From: an uncultured Clostridia bacterium
Lineage (GTDB): Bacteria > Bacillota > Clostridia > Lachnospirales > Lachnospiraceae
Assembly (NCBI GenBank): GCA_948472945.1
Contig: CAOKVX010000009.1
Location: forward strand, 9,752-73,751
Direction: 5' to 3'
DNA length: 64,000 bases
The notes beneath the pieces are model-generated. The model was given only the letters and a program-made list of their open reading frames with translations, was not told the origin of the DNA and did not search any database. How positions within the stretch are numbered: the first letter of the stretch is position 1; every line of letters starts with the position of its first letter. The position numbers were made by a program, and so were the translations under genes. Of this stretch, positions 37,616 to 58,729 are shown piece after piece.

Positions 37616-37626
37616 GGTATGGAATA

Positions 37627-38037
37627 ATGAATTTTGAAAAAAAGTACGGGAGTATGATGAAACTGCTCCCGGTACTGTTGGCGATGGCTGCAATGGCAGC
37701 AGTAACGGCATTATACGTCACTTACATGTCAGATTACGATAAACGGGAGTATGCTGACCAGATAGCTCGTGAATATATACTTAAAATGGAGACTCAGGGT
37801 TATCTTTCTGAGGCGATGAAAAACAATCTTATTTCGGACCTTAGTGACGCGGGATTTGACAGTATTAATCTCCAGGGAACGACAATGACAAAGGCTGAAT
37901 ACGGTGACGAGATTGTGCTTATGATAAACGCACATTTAGAGACCGAAGATTATGTGTTTGAAAATCTTCTATGCAAGAGAACTGACAGGAAGATAAGACA
38001 GATAAAAATAGCAAAAAAATCAACGTCAAAATGTTAG
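37627..38037 (+). CDS. TadE-like minor pilin
   Basis: KKYG leader, hydrophobic helix, AREYILKMETQGYLS, AEYGDEIVL. Confidence 0.6.
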   Translation: MNFEKKYGSMMKLLPVLLAMAAMAAVTALYVTYMSDYDKREYADQIAREYILKMETQGYLSEAMKNNLISDLSDAGFDSINLQGTTMTKAEYGDEIVLMINAHLETEDYVFENLLCKRTDRKIRQIKIAKKSTSKC

Positions 38038-38113
38038 CAACAAGAAAATCAATAACACAGTACACCGGAGTAGTCATAATAAATCAATTATACAAGAAAT
38101 ATGCTATAAACCG

Positions 38114-38704
38114 GTGGGGGAGGTTTGTATGAAAAGCAAAAAGGGCTCTATTGAGTATGTTGGCGCTCTGATGTTGGTATGCTTTGCCGGATTAATCATG
38201 TTCTATCTGATAAGCGTAAAACAGGTTAAGCTGTATCAGATTAAGATTAAGGACAGTGTCGACACTTCGGCCCTGTCAGCCGCAATAATTGATACGGATA
38301 GGCTTATTGGGGACGGGAGTGTGGTAATTGAGAATCCCGTCCGCTCAAGGGATATATTTGAGCGGACTTTAAGGTACAGCTTGAATCTTGACGATAATTT
38401 ATCACCAAGGGGGAGCGGACAGTTTGGGCAGATAAAAATACATGATTTTATAGTATATAGTTTGACGGACGGCTCACGCATCGTAAGGTATGATATCGGA
38501 GAAGACGGGGGATTAACAGAGACTTCGTATGATTATAATGAGAATCCCAGAACGCCTGACGGAAAGATTATAGAGGGCGCGACAATATATGTCGACATAG
38601 GAATGAATGTGACGGGTTTTTTAGGTGTGACAAGATATGAGCATGTAAGGACGAGTGTAGATGTAATAAAGGATTCTGAAGTGCGAAAGGATGATGATAT
38701 ATGA
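38114..38704 (+). CDS. TadG-like pseudopilin (true start probably 38129)
   Basis: MKSKKG leader, hydrophobic helix, IKDSVDTSALSAA. Confidence 0.6.
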   Translation: MGEVCMKSKKGSIEYVGALMLVCFAGLIMFYLISVKQVKLYQIKIKDSVDTSALSAAIIDTDRLIGDGSVVIENPVRSRDIFERTLRYSLNLDDNLSPRGSGQFGQIKIHDFIVYSLTDGSRIVRYDIGEDGGLTETSYDYNENPRTPDGKIIEGATIYVDIGMNVTGFLGVTRYEHVRTSVDVIKDSEVRKDDDI

Positions 38705-39330
38705 AAAAATTAATGGATTATAAGGTTGGAATGATTGCCATTCTGTGTATGGCGGCCGCCGCGGTAATAATATTGTTAACAACTGCGGGCGCAGCCGGAG
38801 GGCATGTCGTTGCCGCGGCTAAGGATATTAAAAAAGGAACTGTAATAAGCGAGAGCAATGTAGATGAGCTGTTTGACTTAAATGGAGAGGCAGGGACTGA
38901 TGGCATCGACTATATTACCGGCACGGATAAACTTGCCGGAATGATAGTAACGGAAGATATACCGTGCGGCGCTTCAGTAAATATGGGTATGGTTATGAGT
39001 GAGTACGGGCCAATCAGCAATATTAAAAACCCGGTTGTAATGGGAATACATGCGGGTGAGGCATCTCAGTTTGTATCGGGAATAATAAGGCGCGGCGACA
39101 CGATTAACATATCGATAGTCGACAGTGTTACGGATGAGTGTGAAAGCGTGCTTGAAGACGTATACGTTTGCGGCGCCTACAATGACGACGGAAGTTCAAT
39201 TGAGGGCGGCGAAGGCAGCGCAAAGTCTCTCAACATATTGGTGGAGAGGGAGGATGAGACAAGAATCAATACACTTTTACATAGGGGAACCATAAGAATA
39301 AGCAAGACGGGAAGTGGTTTAAATGATTAA
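38701..39330 (+). CDS. CpaB/RcpC-like SAF-domain protein
   Basis: N-terminal TM, VVAAAKDIKKGTVIS SAF motif, SGIIRRGDTINI. Confidence 0.65.
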   Translation: MKKLMDYKVGMIAILCMAAAAVIILLTTAGAAGGHVVAAAKDIKKGTVISESNVDELFDLNGEAGTDGIDYITGTDKLAGMIVTEDIPCGASVNMGMVMSEYGPISNIKNPVVMGIHAGEASQFVSGIIRRGDTINISIVDSVTDECESVLEDVYVCGAYNDDGSSIEGGEGSAKSLNILVEREDETRINTLLHRGTIRISKTGSGLND

Positions 39331-42049: not shown

Positions 42050-42070
42050 ATATATAAACGGAGCAATTTT

Positions 42071-42673
42071 ATGATTGGAGTAATATTAAATACGTTTGCG
42101 CTTCATAAAATATTTTGTTATGAACAGTTTGAAGTTAAAAAAAGTCATATAATAATATTTTTAATATTTAATCTGGCAGGTGCCGTCACAGCTCTCGCAT
42201 ATATTTTTTCATGCAGATTGTTTTACAGCGTACCATATATACTTTGCGCTTTCTGGCTTTCCGGCGTCGCATATACAGACTATATCAGCTGTAATGTATA
42301 TGAGATAATGGAGTACTACGCCGTAATACCGATTTTGTTATCTGTGGCAAATATATTATTTTGCGATACTGCCCATACTATGACAAAGCTCGCCGCTGCG
42401 CTTGTCACGGTAGCAGCATATGAAACTATGGCAAAGTTGGAATTTTACGGCGAGGGTGACAGCGATGTTTTATCGGTAGTATGCGTCATGTATTTCGACG
42501 CATACTATAATTGCATATTCTTTGGACTTGTCATGCTGTTATTTGTATTAAGAAATTTTAAGCATATGGTTACCGGCAGAAAGACCGGTGTAATAAGGCC
42601 GCTCGTACCAAGTATATATATGGGTTATATACTCATGCTGCCGTTTGTTGCAGGTAAAGGGCTTACAATCTAA
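42071..42673 (+). CDS. Prepilin peptidase-like (A24/TadV) membrane aspartic protease
   Basis: AYTD and GEGD aspartate motifs, PLVPSIYMG C-terminal motif, multi-TM; last gene of the tad locus. Confidence 0.7.
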   Translation: MIGVILNTFALHKIFCYEQFEVKKSHIIIFLIFNLAGAVTALAYIFSCRLFYSVPYILCAFWLSGVAYTDYISCNVYEIMEYYAVIPILLSVANILFCDTAHTMTKLAAALVTVAAYETMAKLEFYGEGDSDVLSVVCVMYFDAYYNCIFFGLVMLLFVLRNFKHMVTGRKTGVIRPLVPSIYMGYILMLPFVAGKGLTI

Positions 42674-42840: not shown

Positions 42841-45396
42841 ATGGCGAAGCGTAACGGTTTTGGAGGATTTGTGATGACGAGAGATGAATTTTCAGCTTAT
42901 GTCAGAGAGGGAATTGTTATATTAGACGGAGCGACAGGCTCCGTCCTGCAAAAGAACGGCATGCCTTCAGGCGTGTGTCCCGAACAGTGGATACTGGAGC
43001 ACGGTGACCTTCTTGTGGACATACAGAGTAAGTATATAGAGTCGGGCAGCAATATAATATATGCGCCGACATTTACCGGCAATCGTATTAAGCTTGCGGA
43101 GTATGGACTAGACGGCGATACAGAGAAAATAAATAGCGAACTTGTAGGTTTGAGCAAAAGGGCTGTATCTGAAGCGGTATGTCTGGGAAAGAGGAAATGT
43201 CTTGTTGCGGGTGACCTTACAATGACCGGAGAACAGTTATATCCTATAGGTGAATTAAAATTTGAGGAATTGGTTGAGGTATATAAGGAACAGGTACGAT
43301 TCCTTGAAAAGGCCGGTGTTGACTTGTATGTTGTAGAGACGATGATGAGCCTGCAGGAATGCAGGGCCGCGGTTCTTGCAATAAAAGAGACTAATAATCT
43401 TCCTGTAATGGTTACTCTGTCATTTGGAGACGACGAAAGGACGCTTTTTGGAACCGACCCGGTAACTGCAGTCAATGTTCTTCAGTCAATGGGTGTTGAC
43501 GCCGTAGGGGCAAACTGCTCTTCGGGTTATGATAAGATGATACCGATAATTGAAAAAATGGCGTATGCTGCTACTATACCTGTAATTGCTAAGCCTAACT
43601 GCGGCATGCCAAGACTTATAGATAATGAGACCGTATATACACAGACGCCCGATGAGTTTGCCGACGGAATAGAGAAGCTTATTGAAGCGGGAGCGACGAT
43701 TGTTGGAGGGTGCTGCGGAACAGATGCGGTATGTATAAATAAAGTTAGTGAACGTGTAGCCGGACTTGATTACGAAAAGATTAGGGAAAAGTGTGATGAC
43801 AGAAAGAAAGCAGCCCGGTCTTTGAGGCTTTTGTCAAGCGAGAGAAAGACTGTAGACATATCAAAAAAAGAAAAGCTTATTATAATCGGTGAGAGAATTA
43901 ATCCTACAGGTAAAAAAGAACTTCAGGCCTCGCTGCGCGAGGGCAGCATGGAGCTTGTGGCGTGCATGGCGGAGGAACAGGAGGAATATGGAGCCGATAT
44001 ACTTGACGTTAATGTAGGAATGAACGGAATAGATGAGAAGTCGGTATTATTTGATGCGGTTACGACGCTGTCACAGACGGTTGACCTTCCTCTGTCAATT
44101 GACACAAGCAATCCCGAGGCGATGGAGTATGCGCTAAGAAATTATCCCGGAAGGGCTCTGATGAATTCAATCAGCCTGGATACCGAAAAGATGGACATAC
44201 TTCTTCCGATGGCAAAAAAATATGGGGCAATGTTTGTTCTTCTGCCGTTGTCGGAAAAAGGACTTCCTGAGAGTGTACAGGAAAAGAAAGATATAATACA
44301 TGCCATAATGAAAGCAGCGGCGGAACACTGTATATATGAGAATGACATTGTTGTCGACGGACTTGTAGCGACTGTCGGCGCCAATAAGAACGCCGCGGTT
44401 GAAACTGTCGATACTATAAGGTACTGTACGGACGAGCTTGGTGTTGAGACCGTCTGCGGGCTGTCAAATATATCTTTCGGACTTCCGGAGAGGATGTATA
44501 TTAACTCTGCATTTGTCACACTGGCGATAAGCGCGGGGCTTACTATGGCAATTGCAAATCCTATGCAGGAAATGTTTATGAATATCATACATGCAACTGA
44601 CCTTTTGCTTGCCAGAGATGAATCTGATTTAAGATATGTGGACAGGATTACGGTTTTTAATCCTGAACATGTAAGAAAAAATGAAAACAATGCGAATAAT
44701 AATAATGGGGAAATGTTTTCGGTTAAAACCAACATAGTCAGTGAAGATGATTTATCTGTAATTGACGGGGAATTGTATGGATTTGTCGTGAAAGGAAGAA
44801 AAGAACAATCGCTTAACAGAGTTAAGGCTCTTGTGGGTGAAGGAATTACGCCTCAGAGCATAATTGACGGAGCGCTGATTCCCGCTATCAACAGGGTAGG
44901 TGACCTGTACGAGTCGGGAAGATATTTTCTGCCTCAGCTTATGGGCAGTGCAGAGAGTATGAAAAACTGTATAGATTATCTTGAGCCGCTTATGTCCGAT
45001 GAGGACGGCATGGAGACTGAGGGGATTGTAGTTATTGCTACGGTCAAGGGTGATATACATGACATTGGTAAGAATCTTGTTGCAATAATGTTAAAAAACT
45101 GTGGTTTTAAAGTCTATGACCTTGGAAAGAATGTTGCTGCAGAGGACATAATAGACGCTGCACTAAATTACAATGCGGATATTATAGGCTTGTCAGCGTT
45201 AATGACTACTACTATGATGGAGATGAAAAATGTTGTAGATATGGCAAAGGAGAGAGGATTAAGCGCCAAGATAATGATTGGCGGTGCGGTGGTGACAGAA
45301 AGTTTTGCAAAGGAGATTGGCGCCGATGCATATTCCGCTGACGCGGGTGAGGCGGTCAAGGTTGCCAAAATGCTGACTAAGGAGAATTATGAATGA
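42841..45396 (+). CDS. metH: B12-dependent methionine synthase lacking the C-terminal AdoMet reactivation domain (likely start 42871/42874)
   Basis: LDGATGS, GANCS, GGCCGT, IIGERINPTGKK, GLSNISFGLP, DIHDIGKN B12 motif; the protein ends after the B12-binding domain. Confidence 0.92.
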   Translation: MAKRNGFGGFVMTRDEFSAYVREGIVILDGATGSVLQKNGMPSGVCPEQWILEHGDLLVDIQSKYIESGSNIIYAPTFTGNRIKLAEYGLDGDTEKINSELVGLSKRAVSEAVCLGKRKCLVAGDLTMTGEQLYPIGELKFEELVEVYKEQVRFLEKAGVDLYVVETMMSLQECRAAVLAIKETNNLPVMVTLSFGDDERTLFGTDPVTAVNVLQSMGVDAVGANCSSGYDKMIPIIEKMAYAATIPVIAKPNCGMPRLIDNETVYTQTPDEFADGIEKLIEAGATIVGGCCGTDAVCINKVSERVAGLDYEKIREKCDDRKKAARSLRLLSSERKTVDISKKEKLIIIGERINPTGKKELQASLREGSMELVACMAEEQEEYGADILDVNVGMNGIDEKSVLFDAVTTLSQTVDLPLSIDTSNPEAMEYALRNYPGRALMNSISLDTEKMDILLPMAKKYGAMFVLLPLSEKGLPESVQEKKDIIHAIMKAAAEHCIYENDIVVDGLVATVGANKNAAVETVDTIRYCTDELGVETVCGLSNISFGLPERMYINSAFVTLAISAGLTMAIANPMQEMFMNIIHATDLLLARDESDLRYVDRITVFNPEHVRKNENNANNNNGEMFSVKTNIVSEDDLSVIDGELYGFVVKGRKEQSLNRVKALVGEGITPQSIIDGALIPAINRVGDLYESGRYFLPQLMGSAESMKNCIDYLEPLMSDEDGMETEGIVVIATVKGDIHDIGKNLVAIMLKNCGFKVYDLGKNVAAEDIIDAALNYNADIIGLSALMTTTMMEMKNVVDMAKERGLSAKIMIGGAVVTESFAKEIGADAYSADAGEAVKVAKMLTKENYE

Positions 45397-46358
45397 ATAT
45401 GATAGATATTATCATACCTGTATATAATCCGGATGAAAAGCTGAAAAAACTGCTCTGCAGCCTGTACAGGCAATCGGTAAGGGCGGACAGGATAATTCTC
45501 GTTTGGACGGTGCCCGATGGAAAAGATGTCGGTTCGACAGGCTGCGGCGAGTATATATCGTGTTATGGTGATACATCTGCTGTTGATACGGTTTTTATAG
45601 AAAAAAAGGATTTTGACCACGGCGGAACAAGGGCATATGCAGCATCCTTATCCGATGCGGAATATATGCTGTTTATGACGCAGGACGCAGTACCTGCCGA
45701 TGATAAACTTATTTCCTCGCTGTTAAAAATGTTTGACTATAAAAATGTTGCGGCTGCATATGCAAGACAGCTGCCGTCGGAGGATGCAACGGTCACAGAA
45801 AGAATAACAAGGGATTTTAATTATCCTGATAAAGAGAGAGTTCAAAACTCTGACACATTATCCTGTTATGGTATAAAAACATATTTCTGTTCAGATGTGT
45901 GTGCAATGTATAAAAAAGTGTGCTATGATGAGGCAGGCGGTTTTGTTAGGCGTACAATATTTAATGAAGACATGATTATGGCGGCTTCTCTTGTAAAACT
46001 TGGATATACTGTAATGTATACGCCTTGGGCGAGGGTGATACACTCGCATCACTACACCTATATGGAGCAGTATAGGAGAAATTTTGACCTTGCCGTATCT
46101 CAGAGAGAACATCCCGAGGTGTTTAATGGCGTGCCGTCTGAGGGCGAGGGCGTTAGATTGGTAATAACAATTGCGAAAAAACTTGTAAAAGCCGGCAAAA
46201 TTTATAAGATACCGGACCTGTTTATAGAGAGTGCGTTTAAATATATGGGTTATAGAAAAGGCAAAAGGTTTGATAAATTAAGTGATAAAACAATAATGAA
46301 TTGCACTATGAACAGACTATACTGGATAAATAAACAGGATACAAACAAAGATAATTAG
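45393..46358 (+). CDS. GT2 glycosyltransferase (rhamnosyltransferase-like)
   Basis: FDHGGTRA, FMTQDAVP, AYARQLP, FCSDVCAMY, FNEDMI, HSHHY. Confidence 0.85.
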   Translation: MNMIDIIIPVYNPDEKLKKLLCSLYRQSVRADRIILVWTVPDGKDVGSTGCGEYISCYGDTSAVDTVFIEKKDFDHGGTRAYAASLSDAEYMLFMTQDAVPADDKLISSLLKMFDYKNVAAAYARQLPSEDATVTERITRDFNYPDKERVQNSDTLSCYGIKTYFCSDVCAMYKKVCYDEAGGFVRRTIFNEDMIMAASLVKLGYTVMYTPWARVIHSHHYTYMEQYRRNFDLAVSQREHPEVFNGVPSEGEGVRLVITIAKKLVKAGKIYKIPDLFIESAFKYMGYRKGKRFDKLSDKTIMNCTMNRLYWINKQDTNKDN

Positions 46359-46373
46359 GAGAGGACAAATCAC

Positions 46374-47423
46374 ATGGAAGGAATTAACAATTATGGGCGG
46401 AAAGAAAAAATTGATAATGAGAAAAAAAGGACGCGAAAGAAACGCCGCATCATTATTAAAAGCATTGTTCTGGCTGTTTTGTTTATCTGTGCGGCTGTTG
46501 CAGGAAATAGAGCTGCGGCGCTGAGATGGGGACTCCACAGCTCGTTCAAGCTTATAAAGCATGACACGACCCCTATAATACAAAATGTCGACAGGGAAGT
46601 CCTAAACAACGGAGCTGAATTCATAACGAGCGACGATGTAATAAATATTCTTCTTGTCGGCGCCGATAAACGTGAATCGTGGTCGGATACGGGGCGTTCG
46701 GATTCGTGTATGATAGCGACAATAGATTTAAAAAATAAAAAGCTTAAGCTTGTCTCTCTTATGAGAGATATGTACATTGATATCCCCGGCAGAGGAACTC
46801 ACAAATTTAATTGGGCGTACTCGTATGGCGGAGTAGAACTGCTTTATAAGACTATACTTCAGCATTTTGGAATAAAGGTTGACGGATATGTTGTAGTTGA
46901 TTTCTCAGCTTTCAAAAAAGTAGTAAACACACTCGGCGGAGTAGATATAGAGCTGACTGACGAGGAACATGAAATCCTCATGAAAAGATATCACAGGACT
47001 TCCGTACTTGACTTAAAGCCCGGAAAGAATAAAATGAACGGTACACAGGCGCTTGCATATTGCCGTCTCAGGCAGGATGTCCGCGCTGATTTCGGACGTA
47101 CTGATCGTCAGAGATATGTTATTGAGCAGGTACTTAAGAAAATGAAAAAGAAACCTGTCAGCAAGTGGTATGATGTCTTAAACGCAGTTATGCCTGAGGT
47201 TACCACTGATTTGAGCGAGGAAGAGATTATAGAATATATGACGGACGTAATTTTCCTAGGCACGACAACTATTGACCAGATGAGGATTCCTATTGACGGC
47301 TCTTTTAAAGAACTTAAAGGTACTCCGGATGGCGATGTACTTGATGTTGATATCAAAGAGAATAAGGAGGCGTTGAAAGACTTTATCTTTTCCGGCGATG
47401 TAAAGAAGAAAGAGGAAAAATAA
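46374..47423 (+). CDS. LytR-CpsA-Psr (LCP) family glycopolymer transferase
   Basis: NILLVGAD, GRSDSCMI, SLMRD, KFNWAY, ALAYCRLR, DFGRTDRQR. Confidence 0.92.
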   Translation: MEGINNYGRKEKIDNEKKRTRKKRRIIIKSIVLAVLFICAAVAGNRAAALRWGLHSSFKLIKHDTTPIIQNVDREVLNNGAEFITSDDVINILLVGADKRESWSDTGRSDSCMIATIDLKNKKLKLVSLMRDMYIDIPGRGTHKFNWAYSYGGVELLYKTILQHFGIKVDGYVVVDFSAFKKVVNTLGGVDIELTDEEHEILMKRYHRTSVLDLKPGKNKMNGTQALAYCRLRQDVRADFGRTDRQRYVIEQVLKKMKKKPVSKWYDVLNAVMPEVTTDLSEEEIIEYMTDVIFLGTTTIDQMRIPIDGSFKELKGTPDGDVLDVDIKENKEALKDFIFSGDVKKKEEK

Positions 47424-47460
47424 AATAGGCAAAAATATTTTGCAAACTTAAATAAAGGTA

Positions 47461-47489
47461 TTGACAATTTTAAAGTAGTTTATTATACT
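47461..47489 (+). promoter_or_regulatory. SigA promoter of the T-box-ilvD-ilvB operon
   Basis: TTGACA-17 bp-TATACT. Confidence 0.75.
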
Positions 47490-47511
47490 AAGTTAAATTA
47501 ATTTTTGTTAA

Positions 47512-47832
47512 AAGCAGTGATGAGGAGGAGTACATTTCCTGCAGAAGCAGAGAGAGGGTGCGGAAGGTGTAAGCTCCCGTGATGCAGATATGGAAGGTAG
47601 CCTCGGAGCTTTGGATTGAAAAGAACATGATGGCAATATGCGCTGCTGTTCACAGTAGACTCCAACGTGTTTTCCATACGTTACAGTGGAAACGATATAA
47701 ATGAAATGATTTCTGAGTATCGGTTAAGTGCAGATTGCGATGCTTATTGTGGGTTGCGTATCTGAATACAGGTGGTAACACGGACTTGATTGTTCGCCCT
47801 GAATGGATTAATCCATTCAGGGTTATTTTGTT
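47512..47832 (+). ncRNA. T-box riboswitch leader, probable Val (GUA) specifier
   Basis: Stem I with TGATGAGG..AGTA, AGAGAG and GGTG loops, and GAA-G-GTA-G-CCTC; T-box AGGTGGTAACACGG at 47770-83; terminator CCCTGAATGGAT/ATCCATTCAGGG with a T-rich tail. Confidence 0.88.
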
Positions 47833-47869
47833 TATATGATTAAATTAATTATCTGGAAGGAGAATCATT

Positions 47870-49528
47870 ATGAAGAGTGATAACGTAACAAAGGGAATAC
47901 AGCAGGCGCCGCACAGGTCACTGTTAAATGCTTTGGGATTGACAAAGGAAGAGATGGAGAGACCTCTTGTAGGCATTGTCAGTTCGTATAACGAGATAGT
48001 GCCGGGGCATATGAATATAGATAAAATAGTTGAGGCTGTAAAACTGGGAGTGTCGATGGCCGGAGGAACGCCGCGTGTATTTCCGGCTATAGCCGTATGC
48101 GACGGTATTGCGATGGGACATATAGGAATGAAATATTCGCTTGTGACGAGAGACCTTATTGCCGACTCTACAGAATGTATGGCGATTGCCCACCAGTTTG
48201 ACGCCCTTGTCATGATTCCAAACTGTGATAAAAATGTACCGGGTCTTTTGATGGCGGCGGCCAGAATAAACGTCCCTACGATTTTTGTAAGCGGCGGCCC
48301 TATGCTTGCAGGTCGCGTAAACGGAGAAAAGAGAAGCCTTTCAAGTATGTTTGAAGCTGTTGGCGCTCATGCGGCAGGTAAAATGACCGAGGAAGAGGTA
48401 CTTGACTTTGAAAATAACGTATGTCCTACATGCGGTTCATGTTCAGGAATGTACACTGCAAACAGCATGAACTGCCTTACTGAAGTTCTCGGAATGGGAC
48501 TTAAGGGAAACGGAACAATTCCTGCGGTATATTCTGAACGTATAAGGCTTGCAAAGATGGCCGGTATGAAAGTTATGGAACTTCTTGAGAAAAATATATG
48601 TCCGAAAGATATAATGACAGAAAAAGCATTTATGAACGCGCTCACGGTTGACATGGCGCTCGGATGTTCAACTAACAGCATGCTTCATCTGCCTGCCATA
48701 GCGCACGCAGCCGGAATTGAACTCAATCTTGACATTGCAAACGAACTCAGCGCAAAAACGCCTAACCTGTGCCATCTAGCGCCGGCCGGCCCTACTTATA
48801 TGGAAGACCTCAATGCAGCGGGCGGGGTTTATGCAGTTATGAATGAGCTTAACAAGAAAAACCTTCTTAACACTGACGAGATGACCGTGACCGGCAGGAC
48901 GGTCGGTGAAAATATAGGAGGATGCGTTAACAGAAATCCTGATGTAATAAGAACAATAGACAATCCATACAGTCAGACAGGCGGAATAGCCGTGCTGAAA
49001 GGCAATCTTGCTCCTGATTCTTGCGTTGTAAAGCGTTCTGCGGTAGTTGAGGAAATGATGGTACACGAGGGTCCTGCGCGCGTATTTGACTGTGAGGAGG
49101 ATGCTATTGCGGCAATTAAGGGAGGAAAGATTGTCGAGGGAGACGTAGTGGTGATAAGGTATGAAGGTCCTAAGGGAGGACCTGGAATGAGGGAGATGCT
49201 CAATCCAACATCCGCAATTGCCGGAATGGGACTCGGTTCAACGGTTGCGCTCATAACTGACGGACGATTTTCCGGTGCGTCAAGGGGTGCGTCAATAGGT
49301 CACGTATCACCTGAGGCGGCAGTAGGAGGACCGATTGCGCTTGTAGAGGAAGGCGATATAATAAAAATAAACATCCCGGAAAATACAATTAATGTAGATG
49401 TTACGGAAGATGTGCTGCAGGAGAGAAAGAAGAACTGGAAACCACGCGAGCCTAAGGTTACGACAGGATATCTTGCGCGCTATGCAAACATGGTTACATC
49501 CGCGAACAGGGGCGCTATTCTTCTTTAA
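47870..49528 (+). CDS. ilvD: Dihydroxy-acid dehydratase
   Basis: [49 protein letters not shown]. Confidence 0.97.
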
Positions 49529-49700
49529 CAATGATTTACTCAAACGTACAAGATGTTTATAAAAATCATTAACTCTGTATCAGACTGTATATATAAATCA
49601 TGAATATAGAGTTAACAAGTTAACACTACTAAGAAATATTTTTTGCTTATAGAGGATTTATTATAAAATATATAAAGAACATTTTTGGGGAGGAATATAT

Positions 49701-51383
49701 ATGCAAATGACAGGTTCACAAATATTGATGGAGTGTCTGCTTGAACAGGGTGTCGATACGGTATTCGGATATCCGGGCGGAGCGATACTCAACGTATATG
49801 ACGAATTATATAAATACAGCGATAAAATAAAACATATTCTAACGTCGCATGAGCAGGGCGCGTCCCACGCAGCCGACGGCTATGCGAGGGCGACGGGCAG
49901 AGTTGGGGTTTGTATGGCCACAAGCGGCCCCGGAGCAACCAATCTTATAACGGGTATTGCTACGGCATATATGGATTCGGTTCCGCTCGTTGCTATTACA
50001 TGTAATGTTACGGTTGCACTGCTAGGAAAAGACAGCTTTCAGGAGATAGACATAGCCGGTGTGTCTATGCCTATAACAAAGCATAATTTTATTGTTAAGG
50101 ACGTAGATGAACTTGCGGATACTGTAAGGCGCGCATTCAGGATTGCGAGAGAGGGAAGGCCGGGGCCTGTTCTCATAGACATTGCGAAAGACGTTACGGC
50201 CAATAAGTGCAAATATGAGGCGAAAACTTCTAATGATATAAAGAAAAATACAACAAGTATAAGGGAGGAAGACATAGAGAGGGCTGTGAAAGCGATTAAG
50301 ACCTCTAAAAAACCGGTGTGCTTTGTTGGAGGAGGCTGCGTCATATCGGGCGCAGACAAGGAACTGGCAAAGTTTGTCGAACTTGTTGACGCACCTGTGT
50401 GTGATTCTCTTATGGGTAAGGGGGCATACGACGGCAGAAAGCCTAATTACACGGGTATGCTTGGAATGCACGGCACAAAGACTTCCAATTTAAGCGTTGT
50501 AGACTGCGACCTTCTAATTGCGGTAGGAACGAGATTTTCCGACAGGGTTCTCGGCAATCCTAAGAAGTTTGCCAATAAGGCAAAAATACTTCATATAGAT
50601 ATTGACCCTGCCGAGATTAATAAAAATATAATGGCCGACTACAGTATAGTAGGAGATGTAAAGGAAATCCTCTCTATTCTCAATGACAAAATTGAGAAAA
50701 AAGATAACAGGGAGTGGATGGAAAAAGTTGCAGAGAGGAAAAAACAGTTTCCGCTTCCTTATGACACAGAAGAATTTACAGGGCCTCAGATTATAAGATG
50801 CATTGACGAGGCCACTGACGGCGACGCAATAATTACTACGGACGTCGGACAGCATCAGATGTGGGCGGCGCAGAATTACAAATATAGAAATCCACGCACA
50901 TTCCTCTCGTCAGGCGGACTTGGAACTATGGGCTACGGCCTTGGGGCAAGCATAGGTGCGAAGACGGGAATGCCTGATAAGCATGTAATTAACATTGCGG
51001 GTGACGGCTGTTTCAGAATGAACCTTAACGAGCTTGCTACAGCGTCGAGATATAATATACCGATTATACAGATTGTAATAAATAATCACGTGCTCGGAAT
51101 GGTAAGGCAGTGGCAGACTCTTTTTTACGGACAGAGATATTCAAGTACAATACTTGACGACAAGGTTGACTTTGTAAAAGTGTCTGAGGGGCTTGGAGTA
51201 AAGGCAGTGAGAGTTTCAGATATTGACGGATTCAGGAAAGCATTTGACGAGGCTCTTGCGCTTTGTGCACCTATGGTAATAGAGTGTGTAATTGATAATG
51301 ATGATAAGGTATGGCCTATGGTTGCACCGGGCGATTCAATCGGAAATGTATTTACACAGGAAGATTTGGATAAAAAGGATTGA
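49701..51383 (+). CDS. ilvB: Acetolactate synthase large subunit
   Basis: FGYPGGA, HEQGASHAADGY, TSGPGATN, DVGQHQMW, GDGCFRMN, LGMVRQWQ. Confidence 0.97.
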   Translation: MQMTGSQILMECLLEQGVDTVFGYPGGAILNVYDELYKYSDKIKHILTSHEQGASHAADGYARATGRVGVCMATSGPGATNLITGIATAYMDSVPLVAITCNVTVALLGKDSFQEIDIAGVSMPITKHNFIVKDVDELADTVRRAFRIAREGRPGPVLIDIAKDVTANKCKYEAKTSNDIKKNTTSIREEDIERAVKAIKTSKKPVCFVGGGCVISGADKELAKFVELVDAPVCDSLMGKGAYDGRKPNYTGMLGMHGTKTSNLSVVDCDLLIAVGTRFSDRVLGNPKKFANKAKILHIDIDPAEINKNIMADYSIVGDVKEILSILNDKIEKKDNREWMEKVAERKKQFPLPYDTEEFTGPQIIRCIDEATDGDAIITTDVGQHQMWAAQNYKYRNPRTFLSSGGLGTMGYGLGASIGAKTGMPDKHVINIAGDGCFRMNLNELATASRYNIPIIQIVINNHVLGMVRQWQTLFYGQRYSSTILDDKVDFVKVSEGLGVKAVRVSDIDGFRKAFDEALALCAPMVIECVIDNDDKVWPMVAPGDSIGNVFTQEDLDKKD

Positions 51384-51408
51384 CAATTATTTATCAAACA
51401 CATAAAAT
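51380..51408 (+). promoter_or_regulatory. SigA promoter of serC-serA, overlapping the ilvB stop codon
   Basis: TTGACA-17 bp-TAAAAT. Confidence 0.65.
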
Positions 51409-51531
51409 AATATGTGAAACTAAACTCTATATTTAAAATGTATATGCGAATTTTGAGTAATTGCATTAAAGTTAAAACATTTAAATATATAATAAGATAT
51501 GTCAGGTTATTTCTGGCGGAAGGAGGACGAG

Positions 51532-52614
51532 ATGGGAAGAGTGTATAATTTCTCGGCAGGTCCGGCTGTTTTACCGGAAGAGGTACTAAAAGAAGCGGCA
51601 GATGAGATGCTTGATTACAGGGGTTCAGGAATGTCGGTAATGGAGATGAGCCACCGTTCAAAAGTTTTTGATACAATTATTAAGGAGGCTGAACAGGATT
51701 TAAGAGACCTTCTTAATATACCTGACAATTACAGGGTGCTATTCCTTCAGGGCGGAGCTTCCACACAGTTTGCAATGATTCCGATGAACCTTATGAAAAA
51801 TAAGGTTGCGGATTACATAGTAACCGGTCAGTGGGCTAAAAAGGCTTACAAAGAGGCATCAAAATATGGAAAAGCCAACTGTATTGCGTCATCTGAAGAT
51901 AAGACATTTTCATATATACCAGACTGTTCGGACCTCCCTGTGAGTGATGACGCAGACTATGTGTATATTTGCGAGAATAATACAATATATGGAACGAAGT
52001 TCAAGGAACTTCCAAACACAAAGGGGAAGATTCTTGTTTCGGACGTATCGTCATGTTTCCTGTCAGAGCCTATGGATATATCAAAATATGGGCTCGTATA
52101 CGGCGGAGTTCAGAAAAATATTGGCCCGGCCGGAGTTGTAATTGCGATAATAAGGGAGGACCTTATTACGGATGATGTTCTTCCGGAAACTCCTACAATG
52201 CTTCAGTATAAAATACACGCCGACAGCGATTCTCTTTACAATACGCCGCCATGCTATGGAATATATATATGCGGCAAGGTATTTAAGTGGCTTAAGAAGA
52301 TGGGCGGACTTGAGGTGATGAAAGCGAAAAATGAGGAGAAAGCAAAGATTCTCTATGATTACCTTGATGGGAGCAGTCTATTTAAGGGAACGGTTGTTAA
52401 AGAAGACCGCTCTTTGATGAATGTTCCGTTTGTTACCGGAGACGCAGAGCTTGACGCAAAATTTGTGGCGGAGGCGAAAGCGGCAGGATTTGAGAACCTC
52501 AAGGGACACCGTTCTGTCGGTGGAATGAGGGCAAGTATATATAATGCAATGCCAAAAGAAGGTGTTGAAAAGCTTGTTGAATTCATGCGGGAATTTGAGA
52601 AAAAAAATTTATAA
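51532..52614 (+). CDS. serC: Phosphoserine aminotransferase
   Basis: YNFSAGPA, EMSHRS, LQGGAS, GVQKNIGPAG, GHRSVGGMRASIYNA; ATG 51532 follows RBS AGGAGG. Confidence 0.97.
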   Translation: MGRVYNFSAGPAVLPEEVLKEAADEMLDYRGSGMSVMEMSHRSKVFDTIIKEAEQDLRDLLNIPDNYRVLFLQGGASTQFAMIPMNLMKNKVADYIVTGQWAKKAYKEASKYGKANCIASSEDKTFSYIPDCSDLPVSDDADYVYICENNTIYGTKFKELPNTKGKILVSDVSSCFLSEPMDISKYGLVYGGVQKNIGPAGVVIAIIREDLITDDVLPETPTMLQYKIHADSDSLYNTPPCYGIYICGKVFKWLKKMGGLEVMKAKNEEKAKILYDYLDGSSLFKGTVVKEDRSLMNVPFVTGDAELDAKFVAEAKAAGFENLKGHRSVGGMRASIYNAMPKEGVEKLVEFMREFEKKNL

Positions 52615-52656
52615 TCCGTAGCTGATTATAATTTTACAGAGAAAAGAGGATATATT

Positions 52657-53823
52657 ATGACAACAAAAATAAATTGCCTGAATCCTATTGCGGGTGTAGG
52701 ACTTGAAATGCTTGATGATAATTTTGAAATAACCGACAAATTTGAGGATGCCGACGCAGTCCTCGTCCGAAGCGCAGCTATGCATGAACTTGATATGCCG
52801 GAAAGTCTCAAGGCTATAGCTCGTGCGGGCGCGGGCGTAAACAATATACCGCTTGACAAATGCGCCGAGAAAGGAATTGTTGTTTTCAACACACCGGGAG
52901 CCAATGCAAACGGAGTAAAAGAGCTTGTACTTGCAGGACTTATGCTTGCGTCAAGAGATATCGTAGGTGGAATCGAGTGGGTTAAGGACAATATCTCTGA
53001 CGAAAATATTGCAAAATCAGCGGAGAAAGCTAAGAAAGCATTTGCCGGCAGTGAAATAAAGGGAAAGAAGCTCGGTGTAATCGGGCTTGGAGCAATAGGA
53101 GTAATAGTGGCAAACGCTGCAAGCACTCTTGGAATGGAAGTGTATGGATGCGACCCGTACCTATCAGTATATAATGCGCTCAACCTCTCAAGGAATGTGA
53201 ATCTTGTAAAGGATAGAAATGACATATATTCCATGTGTGATTTTATTACAGTACATGTTCCGCTTCTCGACGACACAAAGGGTATGATTAATAAAGAGGC
53301 TATTAGCAGCATGAAAGACGGTGTTGTCATTCTCAATTTTGCAAGGGACATTCTCGCTAATGACGAAGACCTTGCAGACGCCCTTGAATCGGGTAAGGTT
53401 GGGAAATATGTAACAGACTTCCCAAACACAAAAGTAGTAAAAATGAAAAATACAATTGTAATCCCTCATCTTGGAGCTTCTACGGAAGAGTCGGAAGATA
53501 ATTGCGCCGTTATGGCAGTTCAGCAGATGATGGATTTCATTGAAAACGGAAACATAGTAAATTCAGTTAACTATCCTGCTTGCAATGCCGGCGTATGCCA
53601 GTCGGCGGGACGTATAACGATATGCCACAGAAATGTACCTAACCTTATAACAAACTGTGCCGGTGTATTTTCCGGTGCAGGCGTAAATATTGAGCACATG
53701 TTTGATAAGAGCCGCGGCGACTATGCATATTCCATAATTGATATTGCATCTCCTTCGACGGATGATATGGTTAATAAGCTTAAGGCAATCGACGGAGTGC
53801 TAAAGGTAAGAATAGTAAAGTAA
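52657..53823 (+). CDS. serA: D-3-phosphoglycerate dehydrogenase with C-terminal ACT domain
   Basis: RAGAGVNNI, NTPGANA, GLGAIG, PHLGAST, HRNVPN ACT domain. Confidence 0.95.
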   Translation: MTTKINCLNPIAGVGLEMLDDNFEITDKFEDADAVLVRSAAMHELDMPESLKAIARAGAGVNNIPLDKCAEKGIVVFNTPGANANGVKELVLAGLMLASRDIVGGIEWVKDNISDENIAKSAEKAKKAFAGSEIKGKKLGVIGLGAIGVIVANAASTLGMEVYGCDPYLSVYNALNLSRNVNLVKDRNDIYSMCDFITVHVPLLDDTKGMINKEAISSMKDGVVILNFARDILANDEDLADALESGKVGKYVTDFPNTKVVKMKNTIVIPHLGASTEESEDNCAVMAVQQMMDFIENGNIVNSVNYPACNAGVCQSAGRITICHRNVPNLITNCAGVFSGAGVNIEHMFDKSRGDYAYSIIDIASPSTDDMVNKLKAIDGVLKVRIVK

Positions 53824-53884: not shown

Positions 53885-53920
53885 CGCCAGTTACAGTAAT
53901 TGTGACTGGCGAATTTTTTT
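53885..53920 (+). terminator. Rho-independent terminator after serA
   Basis: CGCCAGTTACAG-TAA-TTGTGACTGGCG followed by T7. Confidence 0.8.
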
Positions 53921-53955: not shown

Positions 53956-55293
53956 GTGTTGCATATTTACTTGAAAGGCGGCGGTAGAGTTTTGGATTTT
54001 AATGAATGTATGCAGTATTTAGACGGAGTGCGCAAGCAATGTGGAATATCAATGGGGCTTGAAAATATGAAAAGGATGCTGTCACTTTTTAGTAAGCCTG
54101 ACGCAGGACTAAGGATAATTCATGTAGCCGGAACAAATGGCAAAGGTTCTGTATCATCTTTCATTGCACAGATTTTGAGCGAGGCCGGATATACTGTCGG
54201 CAGATACGTTTCCCCGACTGTTGCCGGGTACTGCGAAAAAATACAGTTTGTCTCCGGCGGGAATACCGAATATATCAGTGAGGAAAGTGCCGCAGTATAT
54301 ATCACGGCGATAAAAAATGCTGTTGAAACTGACGCCTTATGTCCGTCTGAATTTGAAATTGAGACGCTGATGGCAATGCTGTCATTTAGGGACAGAGGGG
54401 TGGATTATGTAATATTAGAATGCGGCATGGGAGGAAGGAACGATGCGACTAATGCGGTATCAGGTAAGGAAATGTGCGTGTTTACTGCCATAGATTATGA
54501 CCATACGAAGTATCTTGGCGAGACGATTGAGGAGATTACAGCCGACAAGGCCGGAATAATTACGCCGGGATGCAAGGCTGTGAGCGCCAATCAGCATCCG
54601 GACAGCTTTAATGTGCTTGAAGAGTTTTCGAAGAAGAATTCAGTTTCAATGAAATACAGAAAGAATATTCGTAACTGCGAATATTCGCTTGACGGAACAA
54701 AATTTTGTTATGGAGGGCATACATATGAGATAGGACTTGCCGGTGTATATCAGACGGAGAATGCGGCTGTCGCAATTGAGGCGGTATCTCTTTTATTAAA
54801 TGATATTGGCTATGACGTAATCAGGGAGGGGCTAAAAAAGACAAAATGGCCGGCCCGCTTTGAGCTCATATCAAAAGGACCGCTTATTATATATGATGGA
54901 GCCCACAATCCGGTAGGAGTGAAAAAGCTTGGTGAGTCAGTGGAAAAGCTGCTTAACAGGGATGAGTATATACGCGTCGGTATAATGGGAGTTTTTGCCG
55001 ACAAAGATATTTCAGGCATGGCAAAGCTGCTTAACGGCGTATTTGACGAGATACATACGGTAACCGCTGAAAGCGGCAGGGCTGAAAATGCGGATAAACT
55101 TGCAAAAAAGATAAAAAAGAAATGTGATATTACCGTAATGCCGCACTCCGACATGAAGCCGTCGCAGGTAATCAGTTTTCTTGAGGGCCGCAGGCAGACA
55201 CACGGTAATGCTTTGGGAAAGAAAAATGCGTATATTGTTTTCGGCTCTCTGTCAATGTATTGTGATATTAGCAGTAGTGTTTGTACTTTTTAA
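53956..55293 (+). CDS. folC: Folylpolyglutamate synthase/dihydrofolate synthase (likely start TTG 53992)
   Basis: IHVAGTNGKGS, ECGMGGRNDATN, DYDHTKYLG, WPARFE, DGAHNP. Confidence 0.93.
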   Translation: MLHIYLKGGGRVLDFNECMQYLDGVRKQCGISMGLENMKRMLSLFSKPDAGLRIIHVAGTNGKGSVSSFIAQILSEAGYTVGRYVSPTVAGYCEKIQFVSGGNTEYISEESAAVYITAIKNAVETDALCPSEFEIETLMAMLSFRDRGVDYVILECGMGGRNDATNAVSGKEMCVFTAIDYDHTKYLGETIEEITADKAGIITPGCKAVSANQHPDSFNVLEEFSKKNSVSMKYRKNIRNCEYSLDGTKFCYGGHTYEIGLAGVYQTENAAVAIEAVSLLLNDIGYDVIREGLKKTKWPARFELISKGPLIIYDGAHNPVGVKKLGESVEKLLNRDEYIRVGIMGVFADKDISGMAKLLNGVFDEIHTVTAESGRAENADKLAKKIKKKCDITVMPHSDMKPSQVISFLEGRRQTHGNALGKKNAYIVFGSLSMYCDISSSVCTF

Positions 55294-55346: not shown

Positions 55347-56210
55347 ATGAAGAAAATGGTTATCGGAGGAAAGCATTTTGAGGATAGCGGCAGGACGTAC
55401 GTCATGGGAATACTCAACGTCACGCCGGATTCATTCTCAGACGGAGGAAAATATAACAGCGTTGACGATGCGCTAAGGCATGCGGAACGTATGATTGATG
55501 AGGGCGCCGATATAATAGATATCGGCGCGGAATCTACAAGACCGGGATTTAAACTTGTAGGCGACGACGAAGAACTGAAAAGGCTTGTTCCTGTTATAGA
55601 AAACATAAAGAAAAGATTTGACGTTCCAATTTCAGTTGATACATTTCACAGCAGGGTGGCTAAGGAGGCAATGAATTGCGGCGCTGATATGATAAACGAC
55701 GTGTGGGGGCTTAAATATTCAGGAAATGATATTCCGATGGCCGAGGTTGTAAAAAGTGGCGGCGCCGCGGTATGCATTATGCATAATTCAGAGCACAAAT
55801 ATGAGAGCGGCGGCGCTGACAGAACTTTAATGGGAAAAATAAATGATAGTATTTTTGCTGAGTTAAAGGAATCTGTTTACATCGCTGAGAGCGCCGGAAT
55901 AGGCAGGGATAAAATAATGATAGACCCCGGCGTGGGGTTTGCGAAAGATTACAGCGTGAATATGAGCATGGTTGCCAACATTGATATATTTAAAAGTATA
56001 GGCTATCCGGTGCTTTTGGGAACGTCCCGAAAATCAGTAATCGGGCTTACGCTCGATGTTCCGGTAAATGAGCGGATGGAGGGGACACTTGCCACGACTG
56101 CGTGCGCAGTTTTAGGAGGATGCAGTTTTATCAGGGTGCACGATGTCGGAAGTAACGTAAAATTTATTAAGATGCTTGAAAATATTTTGGAATTCAAACT
56201 TCGCAGTTAA
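55347..56210 (+). CDS. folP: Dihydropteroate synthase
   Basis: MGILNVTPDSFSDGG, GAESTRPG, DPGVGFAK, GTSRKS, RVHDV. Confidence 0.97.
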   Translation: MKKMVIGGKHFEDSGRTYVMGILNVTPDSFSDGGKYNSVDDALRHAERMIDEGADIIDIGAESTRPGFKLVGDDEELKRLVPVIENIKKRFDVPISVDTFHSRVAKEAMNCGADMINDVWGLKYSGNDIPMAEVVKSGGAAVCIMHNSEHKYESGGADRTLMGKINDSIFAELKESVYIAESAGIGRDKIMIDPGVGFAKDYSVNMSMVANIDIFKSIGYPVLLGTSRKSVIGLTLDVPVNERMEGTLATTACAVLGGCSFIRVHDVGSNVKFIKMLENILEFKLRS

Positions 56211-56254: not shown

Positions 56255-57976
56255 ATGAGGATTAGCTTGACTATGAGTAAGTACGATGTAATAACTATTG
56301 ATGAGCTTGAGGTGTTTGCATACCACGGCGTAATGCCCGAAGAAAATATAGTTGGACAGAAGTTCTGCGTATCTGTCAGCTTGTATGCCGACACGGCGGC
56401 GGCAGGCGTGAGCGACGATATTGACTTAACAATAAATTACGCCAAAGTATGCGGGGATATAAAAAAGTTTGTAGAGGGCAATACGTTTAAACTAATTGAA
56501 GCGGTTGCCAATAAACTTGCGGACATGCTGCTGAAAAAATATAAAACAGTACAGAAGATTACTGTTGAGATAAAAAAACCGTGGGCGCCTATTCATCAGC
56601 CGTTAAATAACGTGTCAGTAAGGATAGAACGCGGATGGCATGAGGCGTATTTAAGCCTTGGATCCAATATAGGCGATAGAAAGCACAATCTTGACAATGC
56701 AGTTGCTTCTATTAAGAACGACGAATGCATTGAGGTTTGCGTCGTTTCAGACTATATTGTGACTGCGCCTGTCGGATTCACCGAACAGGAAGATTTTTTA
56801 AATGCGGCTGTAATGGTAAAAACGCTCTATGAACCGCATGAGCTCCTCGCAGTTATAAACGGTATAGAGGCATCCGGAGGACGAAAACGAGAAGTTCACT
56901 GGGGGCCTAGAACTATAGACATAGATATTATTTTGTTTGATAATCTTGTGATCGGTGATGAAAAGCTAAACATCCCTCACCCTGAAATGCTTAACAGGGA
57001 ATTTGTTTTAAGGCCTCTTGCCCAGATTGCACCATATGCGCTTCATCCAGTTCTTGGAGAAAGCGTGGCGAAGCTTTTGGAGGAATTTTATGAGAAAACA
57101 AAATATGTTTCGGGAGCGGACTATGAAATTGAATTTGAAGGGATAAACAGTCTTCGCATTTTTGAGGAGACAAAAATCGCCTATTTTGGTACGAAAGGGT
57201 CATATTCGCAGAGGGCTATGGAGAGTTTCTTCGGTGAAAGAGGCTACAGTTCGTATGCAATGCCATCGTTTACCGACGTCATGCGTGCGGTCGAAAGCGG
57301 AGAGGCTGATTACGGAGTTGTTCCTATAGAGAACTCCTCGACAGGCGGTATTACCGATATATACGACCACATAGGAGACTATAATATATATATTGTAGGC
57401 GAGCAGATAATAAAAATAGAGCATGCGCTTCTGGGACTTCCGGGCAGCTCAGTCGATGATATAAAGAAAGTGTATTCGCATATACAGGGAATAATGCAGT
57501 GCCCGTCATTTTTTGAGGCTCATCCACAAATAAAGCCGGTCGAGAAATCGAGTACTGCCGAGGGCGCCAGGCTTGTTGTAGAGGGAAAAGACAGGTCGGT
57601 AGGCGCAATAGCCGGAGTGCAGGCTGCGAGGGTGTACGGACTTGACATACTTGAAAACGTAATCAATGACAGGAATAACAACAGCACACGTTTCGTAATA
57701 CTTTCAGGCAGAAAAATATATATAGACAGCTCGAGGAAAATAAGCATATCGTTTGAACTCAAGCATGAGAGCGGTGCATTGTACAGAATATTATCTCATT
57801 TCTACCACAATGGAATCAACCTCGAGAAGATAGAATCCAGACCGATTCCTGAAAAGACATGGGAGTACAGGTTTTTTGTTGACATAGCAGGCAATCTGAA
57901 AATGCAGGGAGTTAAAAATGCATTGTCGGTAATAAACCGTGACGCCGACAATGTCAGGATTATCGGAAATTACTAG
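56255..57976 (+). CDS. Apparent fusion of FolB (dihydroneopterin aldolase), FolK (HPPK), prephenate dehydratase and ACT domain (likely start 56273)
   Basis: FAYHGV..EE and TINY (FolB); YLSLGSNIG, WGPRTIDIDI, IPHP (FolK); GSYS, VPIENSSTG, VYSHIQG, NSTRFVI, KIESRP, YRFFVDI (PDT-ACT); one open frame. Confidence 0.85.
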   Translation: MRISLTMSKYDVITIDELEVFAYHGVMPEENIVGQKFCVSVSLYADTAAAGVSDDIDLTINYAKVCGDIKKFVEGNTFKLIEAVANKLADMLLKKYKTVQKITVEIKKPWAPIHQPLNNVSVRIERGWHEAYLSLGSNIGDRKHNLDNAVASIKNDECIEVCVVSDYIVTAPVGFTEQEDFLNAAVMVKTLYEPHELLAVINGIEASGGRKREVHWGPRTIDIDIILFDNLVIGDEKLNIPHPEMLNREFVLRPLAQIAPYALHPVLGESVAKLLEEFYEKTKYVSGADYEIEFEGINSLRIFEETKIAYFGTKGSYSQRAMESFFGERGYSSYAMPSFTDVMRAVESGEADYGVVPIENSSTGGITDIYDHIGDYNIYIVGEQIIKIEHALLGLPGSSVDDIKKVYSHIQGIMQCPSFFEAHPQIKPVEKSSTAEGARLVVEGKDRSVGAIAGVQAARVYGLDILENVINDRNNNSTRFVILSGRKIYIDSSRKISISFELKHESGALYRILSHFYHNGINLEKIESRPIPEKTWEYRFFVDIAGNLKMQGVKNALSVINRDADNVRIIGNY

Positions 57977-58110
57977 TGAATTGATTGCACTATACTTTTT
58001 ATAACTAACCGGAATATAATCACTGTGCGCAATAAGGCGACCGTTTGACAATTTTTGTGATTAGGCTTCAGAGTATATAAAATTTTTTGTTGCAATACGT
58101 AATAATCACT

Positions 58111-58335
58111 ACAGGCGCTTGGAATTCGGAATTTTGAGCCTGTCAACCTAATCTTAGCGGTAGGTTGAACATTGAAAAGTAAATATTGTTCAGAACGGAA
58201 CAGCTAGAAATAATTGCCTTGTGATATTTCTTCGTCAGAAATTTGGAAGATGCAGTTAGCTTTCAAAAAGAAACGGTTGTGTGGAGACAATCCTTTTAAG
58301 GATGAGTGAACCGTGTGGTTGTAGTTCTGAACATA
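58111..58335. ncRNA. Candidate structured non-coding RNA (family not recognised)
   Basis: Nested helices: 10-bp perfect closing stem 58187-96/58324-33 enclosing two branched arms, preceded by two stacked hairpins; no long ORF. Confidence 0.4.
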
Positions 58336-58533
58336 TGTCCCCAAAATGCCCCAAAGTTTATCTATAGAATGAAAATCCTATTAAAGAAAGACAAGACATT
58401 GTTGCTAACTCACTTCTTATTCCAAATGCAATGAGCCTTACTGCTTCATCATTTATTACAATAACAGCGACGTTGACTAAGGGAGACATTGTAATTACAA
58501 GGAAAATGTTTGCGAGAGTCGCTGCAAAAGTAG

Positions 58534-58585
58534 ATGCCACCGCCTATATTTGGTATACTTAACTGTCAAATACAGGCGGTGGTAT
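58534..58585. repeat. 20-bp-arm inverted repeat with a 12-nt loop
   Basis: ATGCCACCGCCTATATTTGG / TCAAATACAGGCGGTGGTAT: 17 Watson-Crick pairs, 2 G-T pairs, 1 mismatch. Confidence 0.8.
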
Positions 58586-58648
58586 TGTAATTGAACAACA
58601 GCAGAAGTGAGTGTTAATCGTCTAACGATGCCATATTACATAACTATC

Positions 58649-58677
58649 TTGCGTATATCTTTTTTATGCTGTATAAT
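58649..58677 (+). promoter_or_regulatory. SigA promoter of ppi
   Basis: TTGCGT-17 bp-TATAAT. Confidence 0.6.
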
Positions 58678-58729
58678 TACCAAATAATACCCCGTCTCAT
58701 GCGGCGGGCATGGAAAAAGGAGAGTAATC

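Follow-up and report, generated by a model that had tools for sequence, protein, structure and literature searches.

A FolB-FolK-prephenate dehydratase fusion in a Lachnospiraceae folate operon, probably formed by deletion between adjacent folBK and pheA genes

How a single gene could come to join enzymes of folate and phenylalanine biosynthesis is the question raised by a 64,000-nucleotide stretch of DNA from an uncultured member of the Lachnospiraceae (contig CAOKVX010000009.1); the whole of this stretch was analyzed and is called the window below. One open reading frame (ORF) of 573 amino acids carries FolB, HPPK (FolK), prephenate dehydratase (PDT), and ACT domains in a row (Table 1) and closes a folC-folP-fusion operon. 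We put the probability at roughly 80% that it encodes a real trifunctional enzyme that originated by a deletion between neighboring folBK and pheA genes, most likely independently in two or three lineages. The fusion is built from ordinary enzymes, a multifunctional folate enzyme and PheA, both of known kinds.

All four Pfam domains score above their gathering thresholds, down to the ACT domain, where the PF01842 match at residues 497-557 reaches 29.2 bits (cut-off, 27 bits); the PF01288 match to HPPK itself covers residues 132-260. Among the NCBIfam models, the ORF passes those for folB (TIGR00525; 123 bits versus a cut-off of 72), folK (TIGR01498; 143 bits versus 54), and the prephenate dehydratase equivalog NF008865 (PRK11898; 228.3 bits versus 219), and it fails PRK10622, the model for the fused chorismate mutase-prephenate dehydratase (CM-PDT), with 169 bits versus 577. 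An earlier reading made without database searches (the sequence-only reading) had described one frame of 573 residues with all of the enzyme domains, and the ORF list, the Pfam matches, and the NCBIfam cut-offs bear this out. The start codon may be ATG 56273 (567 amino acids) rather than ATG 56255 (573 amino acids), because the homology of relatives begins at fusion residue 8 to 11 and close relatives are 567 amino acids long.

Residue conservation, read across 86 members of the fusion family, extends over every domain. In FolB, E30, Y62, E82, and K108 are invariant; in HPPK, invariance is complete or almost complete at GSN136-138, T170, P172, N183, R212, W216, R219, D222, D224, H242, R248, and F250. 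The PDT motifs ENS359-361, SHxQ408-411, QC415-416, and T478-R-F480 are invariant in clade A, the fusion clade to which the window belongs, and also in clade B (B1 and B2), except that about half of its members carry R479K and one carries T478P. Finally, G507-A-L509 (G507xL509) and ESRP527-530 of the ACT domain are invariant; we take the GAL(V) and ESRP motifs to be the phenylalanine site of ACT, on the basis of mutagenesis of the Escherichia coli P-protein. The fusion is accordingly predicted from its motifs to carry dihydroneopterin aldolase (DHNA), HPPK, and phenylalanine-sensitive PDT activities. Against P0001, a relative with 91% identity (synonymous divergence [dS] of 0.85), the ratio of nonsynonymous to synonymous divergence (dN/dS) is 0.066 for FolB, 0.067 for HPPK, 0.092 for the linker, 0.047 for PDT, and 0 for ACT, in which dN is 0. 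At the level of sequence comparison, these values demonstrate purifying selection on four intact domains and on the linker between the two halves, although at greater distance the linker outpaces the domains in nonsynonymous divergence (pN of 0.45 versus 0.22 to 0.29). An AlphaFold2 model built from a 68-sequence alignment has a mean predicted local distance difference test (pLDDT) score of 87.6, with every domain confident; a helix at residues 271-282 closes the HPPK part, and the linker after it, at residues 283-306, is mostly coil and partly ordered (pLDDT of ∼60 to 87). The predicted template modeling score (pTM) is 0.56, so that the position of one half relative to the other is undefined.

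The two halves have separate nearest relatives. The PDT half is closest to Lachnospiraceae CM-PDT proteins of 375 to 380 amino acids (47 to 56% identity), and the N-terminal half is closest, among its best 120 matches, to unfused FolB-HPPK proteins of 270 to 280 amino acids (50 to 58% identity), which relatives have in abundance. The fusion proteins P0001-P0086 are missing from these best 120 matches even though they would be expected to outscore them, which is probably a property of the listing. Unfused FolBK proteins end 16 to 19 residues past a conserved HPV motif, equivalent to fusion residue ∼279-286; in the fusion, HPV is followed by 16 residues to T282, and another 30 precede the YFG motif. 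The length of this 30-residue segment equals that of residues 86-115 in T016, a CM-PDT encoded in tandem with folBK, with which it aligns column for column, and in phmmer alignments with CM-PDT proteins the match opens at query residue 287-296, equivalent to CM-PDT residue ∼93. Because the FolBK ends, the linker length, and the alignment starts agree, the fusion is a whole FolBK joined to a CM-PDT that has lost the CM domain (∼85 residues at its N terminus) and retains the post-CM linker. The sequence-only reading had likened the linker to the segment that follows CM and had placed FolBK where CM used to be; the equal length and the alignments beginning just past CM support the former view, and the linker homology, with CM-PDT proteins as the nearest PDT relatives, supports the latter.

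The state expected before such a deletion still exists. A scan of one genome per species recovered folP-folBK followed by an ORF of 375 to 382 amino acids, all on one strand, in nine species genomes, including Eubacterium xylanophilum ATCC 35991, Hominisplanchenecus faecis, Wujia chipingensis, and an Anaerostipes metagenome-assembled genome. Pfam annotates this ORF as CM_2 plus PDT in three cases, and a hidden Markov model (HMM) of CM matches all nine. In six of the nine pairs, folBK and pheA are separated by 0 to 6 nucleotides or overlap by 4 to 11; the remaining gaps are 28 (L042), 43 (L037), and 161 (L071) nucleotides. More broadly, folBK lies within ∼6 kb at 23 of 48 PDT-bearing loci, a fraction that is not unbiased, as the loci were picked by similarity to the query; these 23 comprise 1 fusion, 9 tandem pairs, 10 loci with both genes on the same strand 1 to 3.6 kb apart, and 3 with the genes on opposite strands. 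At the same-strand spaced loci a DUF5050 β-propeller gene often sits between folBK and PDT. The presence of this gene (PF16472) between the fol operon and pheA recurs in varying orientation, and in L034, L064, and L080 an ApbE gene fills the folBK-pheA gap instead. Given the nine tandem genomes and the 23 of 48 PDT loci near folBK, the association of pheA with the fol operon is older than any fusion; the earlier proposal that the fusion brought pheA into this operon thus had the order reversed, with CM-PDT already adjacent.

On these grounds we propose an ancestor in which folBK and a pheA encoding CM-PDT were adjacent, co-oriented, and tightly packed. The simplest route would be a single deletion taking out the folK stop codon together with the ∼85-residue CM domain and leaving both the whole FolBK and the post-CM linker intact. 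Each domain would then keep its ancestral chemistry, with PDT still sensitive to phenylalanine through ACT, chorismate mutase would be supplied in trans by another gene, and the main effect of the fusion would be to fix 1:1 co-expression. FolB forms oligomers and AroQ CM forms dimers; FolB-HPPK may therefore serve as a new N-terminal oligomerizing partner of PDT-ACT in place of the dimeric CM. The locus would thus offer a natural case of gene fusion by deletion between packed operon neighbors in which the precursor state is extant. In the Lachnospiraceae, the fol-pheA link takes tandem, DUF5050-spaced, and fused forms, the last with either FolBK or FolC, and so frequent an operon link between pheA and folate genes may reflect co-regulation of folate and aromatic amino acid synthesis.

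A frameshift introduced by sequencing or assembly would remove the fusion altogether. The sequence-only reading had raised this caveat, and its observations are accurate: the linker it quoted, a GGAGG at 57079-83, an out-of-frame ATG at 57090-92, and a run of four A residues at 57095-98 are all in place, and its arithmetic is right in that one added A (A5 at 57095-98) would yield two ORFs, a separate folBK and a CM-less pheA. The caveat itself does not survive comparison with other data. Over 56800-57400, contigs assembled from four DNA runs, one from each of four mouse gut studies, are identical to the window and show no indel. Contigs of four RNA runs (three metatranscriptomic and one transcriptomic by label), which come from a strain 2 to 3% divergent from the window, likewise read through the junction with no indel. 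Two of the RNA-run contigs extend from folP into the fusion, although DNA carry-over is possible in such libraries. Furthermore, ∼85 homologous clusters down to 40% identity stay in one frame despite different nucleotides at the junction. The fusion is therefore a single transcribed and conserved ORF, the artifact is refuted at the level of assembly, and we give it next to no chance. The out-of-frame GGAGG-N6-ATG, for its part, is a chance by-product of the coding sequence: TAT is TAC in P0001, so that the ATG is gone, P0005 has CTT GAA GAA, so that the GGAGG is gone, and the window holds 11 such motifs versus 7.3 ± 2.7 in shuffled sequences. Since pheA starts overlap the end of folK in tandem operons, we also considered the motif as a relic of an ancestral pheA start, and rejected this for its lack of conservation at 91% or 77% identity and its chance frequency. 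As for the other parts of our reading, several points weigh against it. Catalytic function is assigned from conserved motifs, group B departs from the otherwise conserved residues by S316A, by D543T/S, and, in about half of its members, by R479K, and no stand-alone AroQ CM was found in a six-frame search of the 64-kb window and the flanks of six fusion loci (10 to 20 kb per locus), a search for AroQ that leaves AroH-type CM outside its scope. With regard to origin, the breakpoints of clades A, B1, and B2 agree within ∼2 residues, which under independent origin would be a coincidence unless only this boundary is viable; our trees are distance-based and have short internal branches; the FolBK half alone is poorly resolved, with 32% support; and the downstream genes differ in every lineage, so that synteny cannot separate the scenarios. 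The missing CM and the group B substitutions would suit a neofunctionalized PDT that acts on another cyclohexadienyl substrate or has become a structural or regulatory appendage of FolBK. CM_2 (PF01817) is indeed absent from the ORF by Pfam, and an HMM derived from 34 relatives' CM domains has no match in the ORF or anywhere in the window at an E value of ≤1, nor any in the linker, where no CM remnant is detectable. However, CM could reside elsewhere in the genome, the ENS, SHxQ, QC, and T-R/K-F motifs and the GAL and ESRP motifs of ACT are invariant, the prephenate dehydratase equivalog model is passed, and dN/dS is lowest in PDT and ACT, all of which make a change of function very unlikely.

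Whether the fusion formed once or repeatedly was addressed with neighbor-joining distance trees of 41 taxa, comprising fusions and tandem operons, in which the FolBK half and the PDT-ACT half were concatenated over 535 columns. Clades A, B1, and B2 were each recovered in 200 of 200 bootstraps, and the bipartition uniting all fusions was recovered in none of 200, nor in any of 100 replicates under p, Poisson, or gamma distances or in each half separately. Clade A joins the tandem operons T015, T016, and T018 in 79 to 89% of replicates, clade B2 nests within T042, T071, T051, and T037 in 73 to 74%, and B1 has a one-residue deletion in common with T039 and T076. Because the fusion clades join different tandem lineages and all-fusion monophyly is never recovered, we favor recurrent, independent origin, which these trees make probable. 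The alternative is a single ancient fusion, inherited or horizontally transferred, whose scattered positions would reflect rate variation or recombination of the PDT half. The matching junction position and linker length speak for it, as do the short internal branches and the weak resolution of the FolBK half, but it would need several reversions that regained CM at the exact spot, and long-branch attraction should have united the long fusion branches, which stay apart; we consider a single origin doubtful. If fusion did occur repeatedly at the same domain boundary, probably two or three times, the family would be useful for studying viable breakpoints. A further, speculative possibility is that the fusion is adaptive coupling, in which PDT-ACT relays phenylalanine status to FolB and HPPK, or the reverse, and ties pterin synthesis to aromatic supply; the sequence-only reading had raised control of the pterin steps by phenylalanine through ACT. 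This would accord with the apparent repeated origin, the strong purifying selection on the linker (dN/dS of 0.09), the widespread fol-pheA operon linkage, and the existence of a second fusion, FolC-CM-PDT. Yet operon adjacency and tight packing suffice for repeated fusion by deletion, neither the pTM of 0.56 nor the coil linker points to a fixed interface between the halves, and over larger distances the linker changes far more quickly than the domains; such coupling therefore seems improbable. It is likewise unlikely that the fol-pheA link as a whole is adaptive in the sense that lineages swapped CM for FolB-HPPK to gain phenylalanine-responsive pterin synthesis or an assembly of FolB octamers with PDT dimers. 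Were coupling true, abundant gut Lachnospiraceae would contain an allosteric enzyme acting across two pathways that had not been recognized before. A trifunctional enzyme whose parts retain their own chemistry, formed by deletion in more than one lineage, remains the reading we prefer.

The architecture is rare. A homologue search found ∼85 protein clusters of 560 to 573 amino acids with FolB, HPPK, and PDT (with or without ACT), at 91% to 40% identity, and when 1.84 billion representatives clustered at 50% identity were searched exhaustively with phmmer (25,917 matches at an E value of ≤1e-10), only three matches spanned both halves, namely P0008, P0041, and P0066, representing clades A, B1, and B2. 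The sequence-only reading had stated that no fusion with PheA was known and had proposed a search for the same architecture; the homologue search brought up the ∼85 clusters, which were already public under the generic source names "prephenate dehydratase" or "HPPK," so that the statement holds for the literature and not for the databases. Neither a FolBK-PDT fusion nor a fol-pheA operon link turned up in the literature that was searched, and a 2007 SEED survey of folate gene fusions mentions neither prephenate nor chorismate mutase (PMC1971073). This cross-pathway fusion is thus previously undescribed in the searched literature, with its proteins present in public databases under partial names; no record of the exact fusion protein was found in public assemblies. 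Such single-name labels may hide folB and folK, or pheA, in metabolic reconstructions of gut Lachnospiraceae, and the label "PheA" may wrongly credit the fusion with chorismate mutase activity.

The Streptococcus pneumoniae DHNA-HPPK (FolB-FolK, "SulD"; PDB 2CG8) aligns end to end with fusion residues 11-276 (E value of 7e-58) and has the same domain order, catalytic residues, and fol operon location, but it lacks the 290-residue C-terminal PDT-ACT module. Compared to P-protein/PheA (CM_2, PDT, and ACT), the fusion retains the inter-domain linker and conserves the TRF, ESRP, and GAL motifs; unlike the E. coli type (PRK10622), it has FolB-HPPK in place of the AroQ CM domain, and its linker and PDT homology nevertheless indicate descent from CM-PDT. 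The Chlorobium tepidum PDT-ACT (2QMX) matches fusion residues 308-573 over its full length (E value of 2e-52), yet in contrast to such monofunctional PDTs of ∼270 to 280 amino acids (2QMX and Staphylococcus aureus 2QMW), the module here forms the C-terminal half of a larger protein and lies in a folate operon. No PDB chain spans both halves of the fusion. Yeast Fol1 (FolB-FolK-FolP; PDB 2BMB) matches fusion residues 127-282, and both are multi-enzyme polypeptides around HPPK; however, Fol1 and the plant and Francisella fusions of HPPK with dihydropteroate synthase join consecutive steps of one pathway, whereas the fusion described here joins two pathways without a shared intermediate. The evolution of multifunctional folate enzymes by gene fusion and fission has been documented (PMC4224340). 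A second folate enzyme joined to PheA in this bacterial group is P0249 (824 amino acids), which consists of FolC (Mur_ligase_M and Mur_ligase_C), CM_2, and PDT; its partner is FolC and CM is kept, in contrast to the fusion. The PDT of P0249 has clade B2 and T042/T071 as close relatives. P0249 shows that fol::pheA fusions recur. Another protein, P0263 (584 amino acids), combines prephenate dehydrogenase (PDH_N and PDH_C) with PDT, indicating that PDT takes various N-terminal partners.

Table 1. Coordinates of the fusion, its parts, and associated features (window positions unless a locus is named; residues are those of the 573-amino-acid ORF)
Feature	Position	Strand	Evidence or remark
Fusion gene folB-folK-pheA(ΔCM)	56255-57976	+	ORF list, Pfam, NCBIfam, ∼85 homologous clusters
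FolB (dihydroneopterin aldolase)	56291-56629, residues 13-125	+	PF02152, 127 bits
HPPK (FolK) with C-terminal helix	56648-57100, residues 132-282	+	PF01288, 134 bits
Linker	57101-57175, residues 283-307	+	Aligns to post-CM inter-domain linker of CM-PDT
Prephenate dehydratase, catalytic PDT	57176-57712, residues 308-486	+	PF00800, 192 bits
ACT regulatory domain	57743-57973, residues 497-573	+	PF01842
Predicted junction-spanning peptide of the fusion			…EEFYEKTKYVSGADYEIEFEGINSLR…
Out-of-frame GGAGG-N6-ATG	57079-57092	+	Within codons for L-E-E-F-Y-E
Terminator-like hairpin	53885-53911	+	12-bp stem, 6 G-C pairs, then T-run; consensus match only
folC (folylpolyglutamate/dihydrofolate synthase)	53956-55293	+	Pfam Mur_ligase_M, Mur_ligase_C; first gene of the operon
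folP (dihydropteroate synthase)	55347-56210	+	Pfam Pterin_bind, 258 bits; directly 5' of the fusion
DUF5050 gene between folBK and CM-PDT	L007 9157-10170; L008 9151-10170		Also in L020, L021, L023, L028, L029, L046

The gene order in the window is serC, serA, a terminator-like hairpin, folC, folP, the fusion, a 753-nucleotide gap, and then genes for a cyclophilin and an LD-carboxypeptidase, spoIIGA, and sigE, with the hairpin, 3' of serA, dividing serC-serA from folC-folP-fusion. The fusion is the last fol operon gene in every relative examined, where the operon takes the forms folE-folP-fusion, folC(-HD)-folP-fusion, and folC/HD-fusion. Assemblies that carry the fusion include GCA_000621985.1, GCA_002372545.1, and GCA_964648695.1. 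The folP-fusion order is also found in L001, L003, L009, L090, L091, and L092, the last two of which keep folC upstream, and in L092 (77% identity) gene order is identical to that of the window through sigE and GH43. No riboswitch or T-box was matched in Rfam at an E value of ≤1 within 51 to 59 kb of the window, and Pfam annotation revealed no aromatic pathway genes elsewhere in its 64 kb.

The gap downstream of the fusion (57977-58729) comprises ∼690 nucleotides of noncoding DNA between the fusion stop codon and the ribosome-binding site of the cyclophilin gene, without an Rfam match. This spacer is absent from L092, where the gap is ∼80 nucleotides; it holds a 19-nucleotide inverted repeat at 58534-58585, and one RNA-run contig has a small rearrangement at 58063-58070. 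Directly upstream of the fol operon, 42841-53823 holds genes of one-carbon and amino acid metabolism, namely metH (with a pterin-binding domain of its own), ilvD, ilvB, serC, and serA, and L091 has the order ilvB-serC-serA-folC-folP-fusion in common with the window. Farther upstream, 34552-42673 begins with T2SSE- and T2SSF-like genes (a pilus or secretion ATPase and platform), followed by six ORFs without a Pfam match, one of them 908 amino acids long (39323-42049). Lastly, 12600-28239 is occupied by a large cell wall polysaccharide cluster with GT4, several GT2, RmlD, a Wzm/Wzt ABC exporter, two RgpF rhamnan synthesis genes, a methyltransferase, and an acyltransferase.

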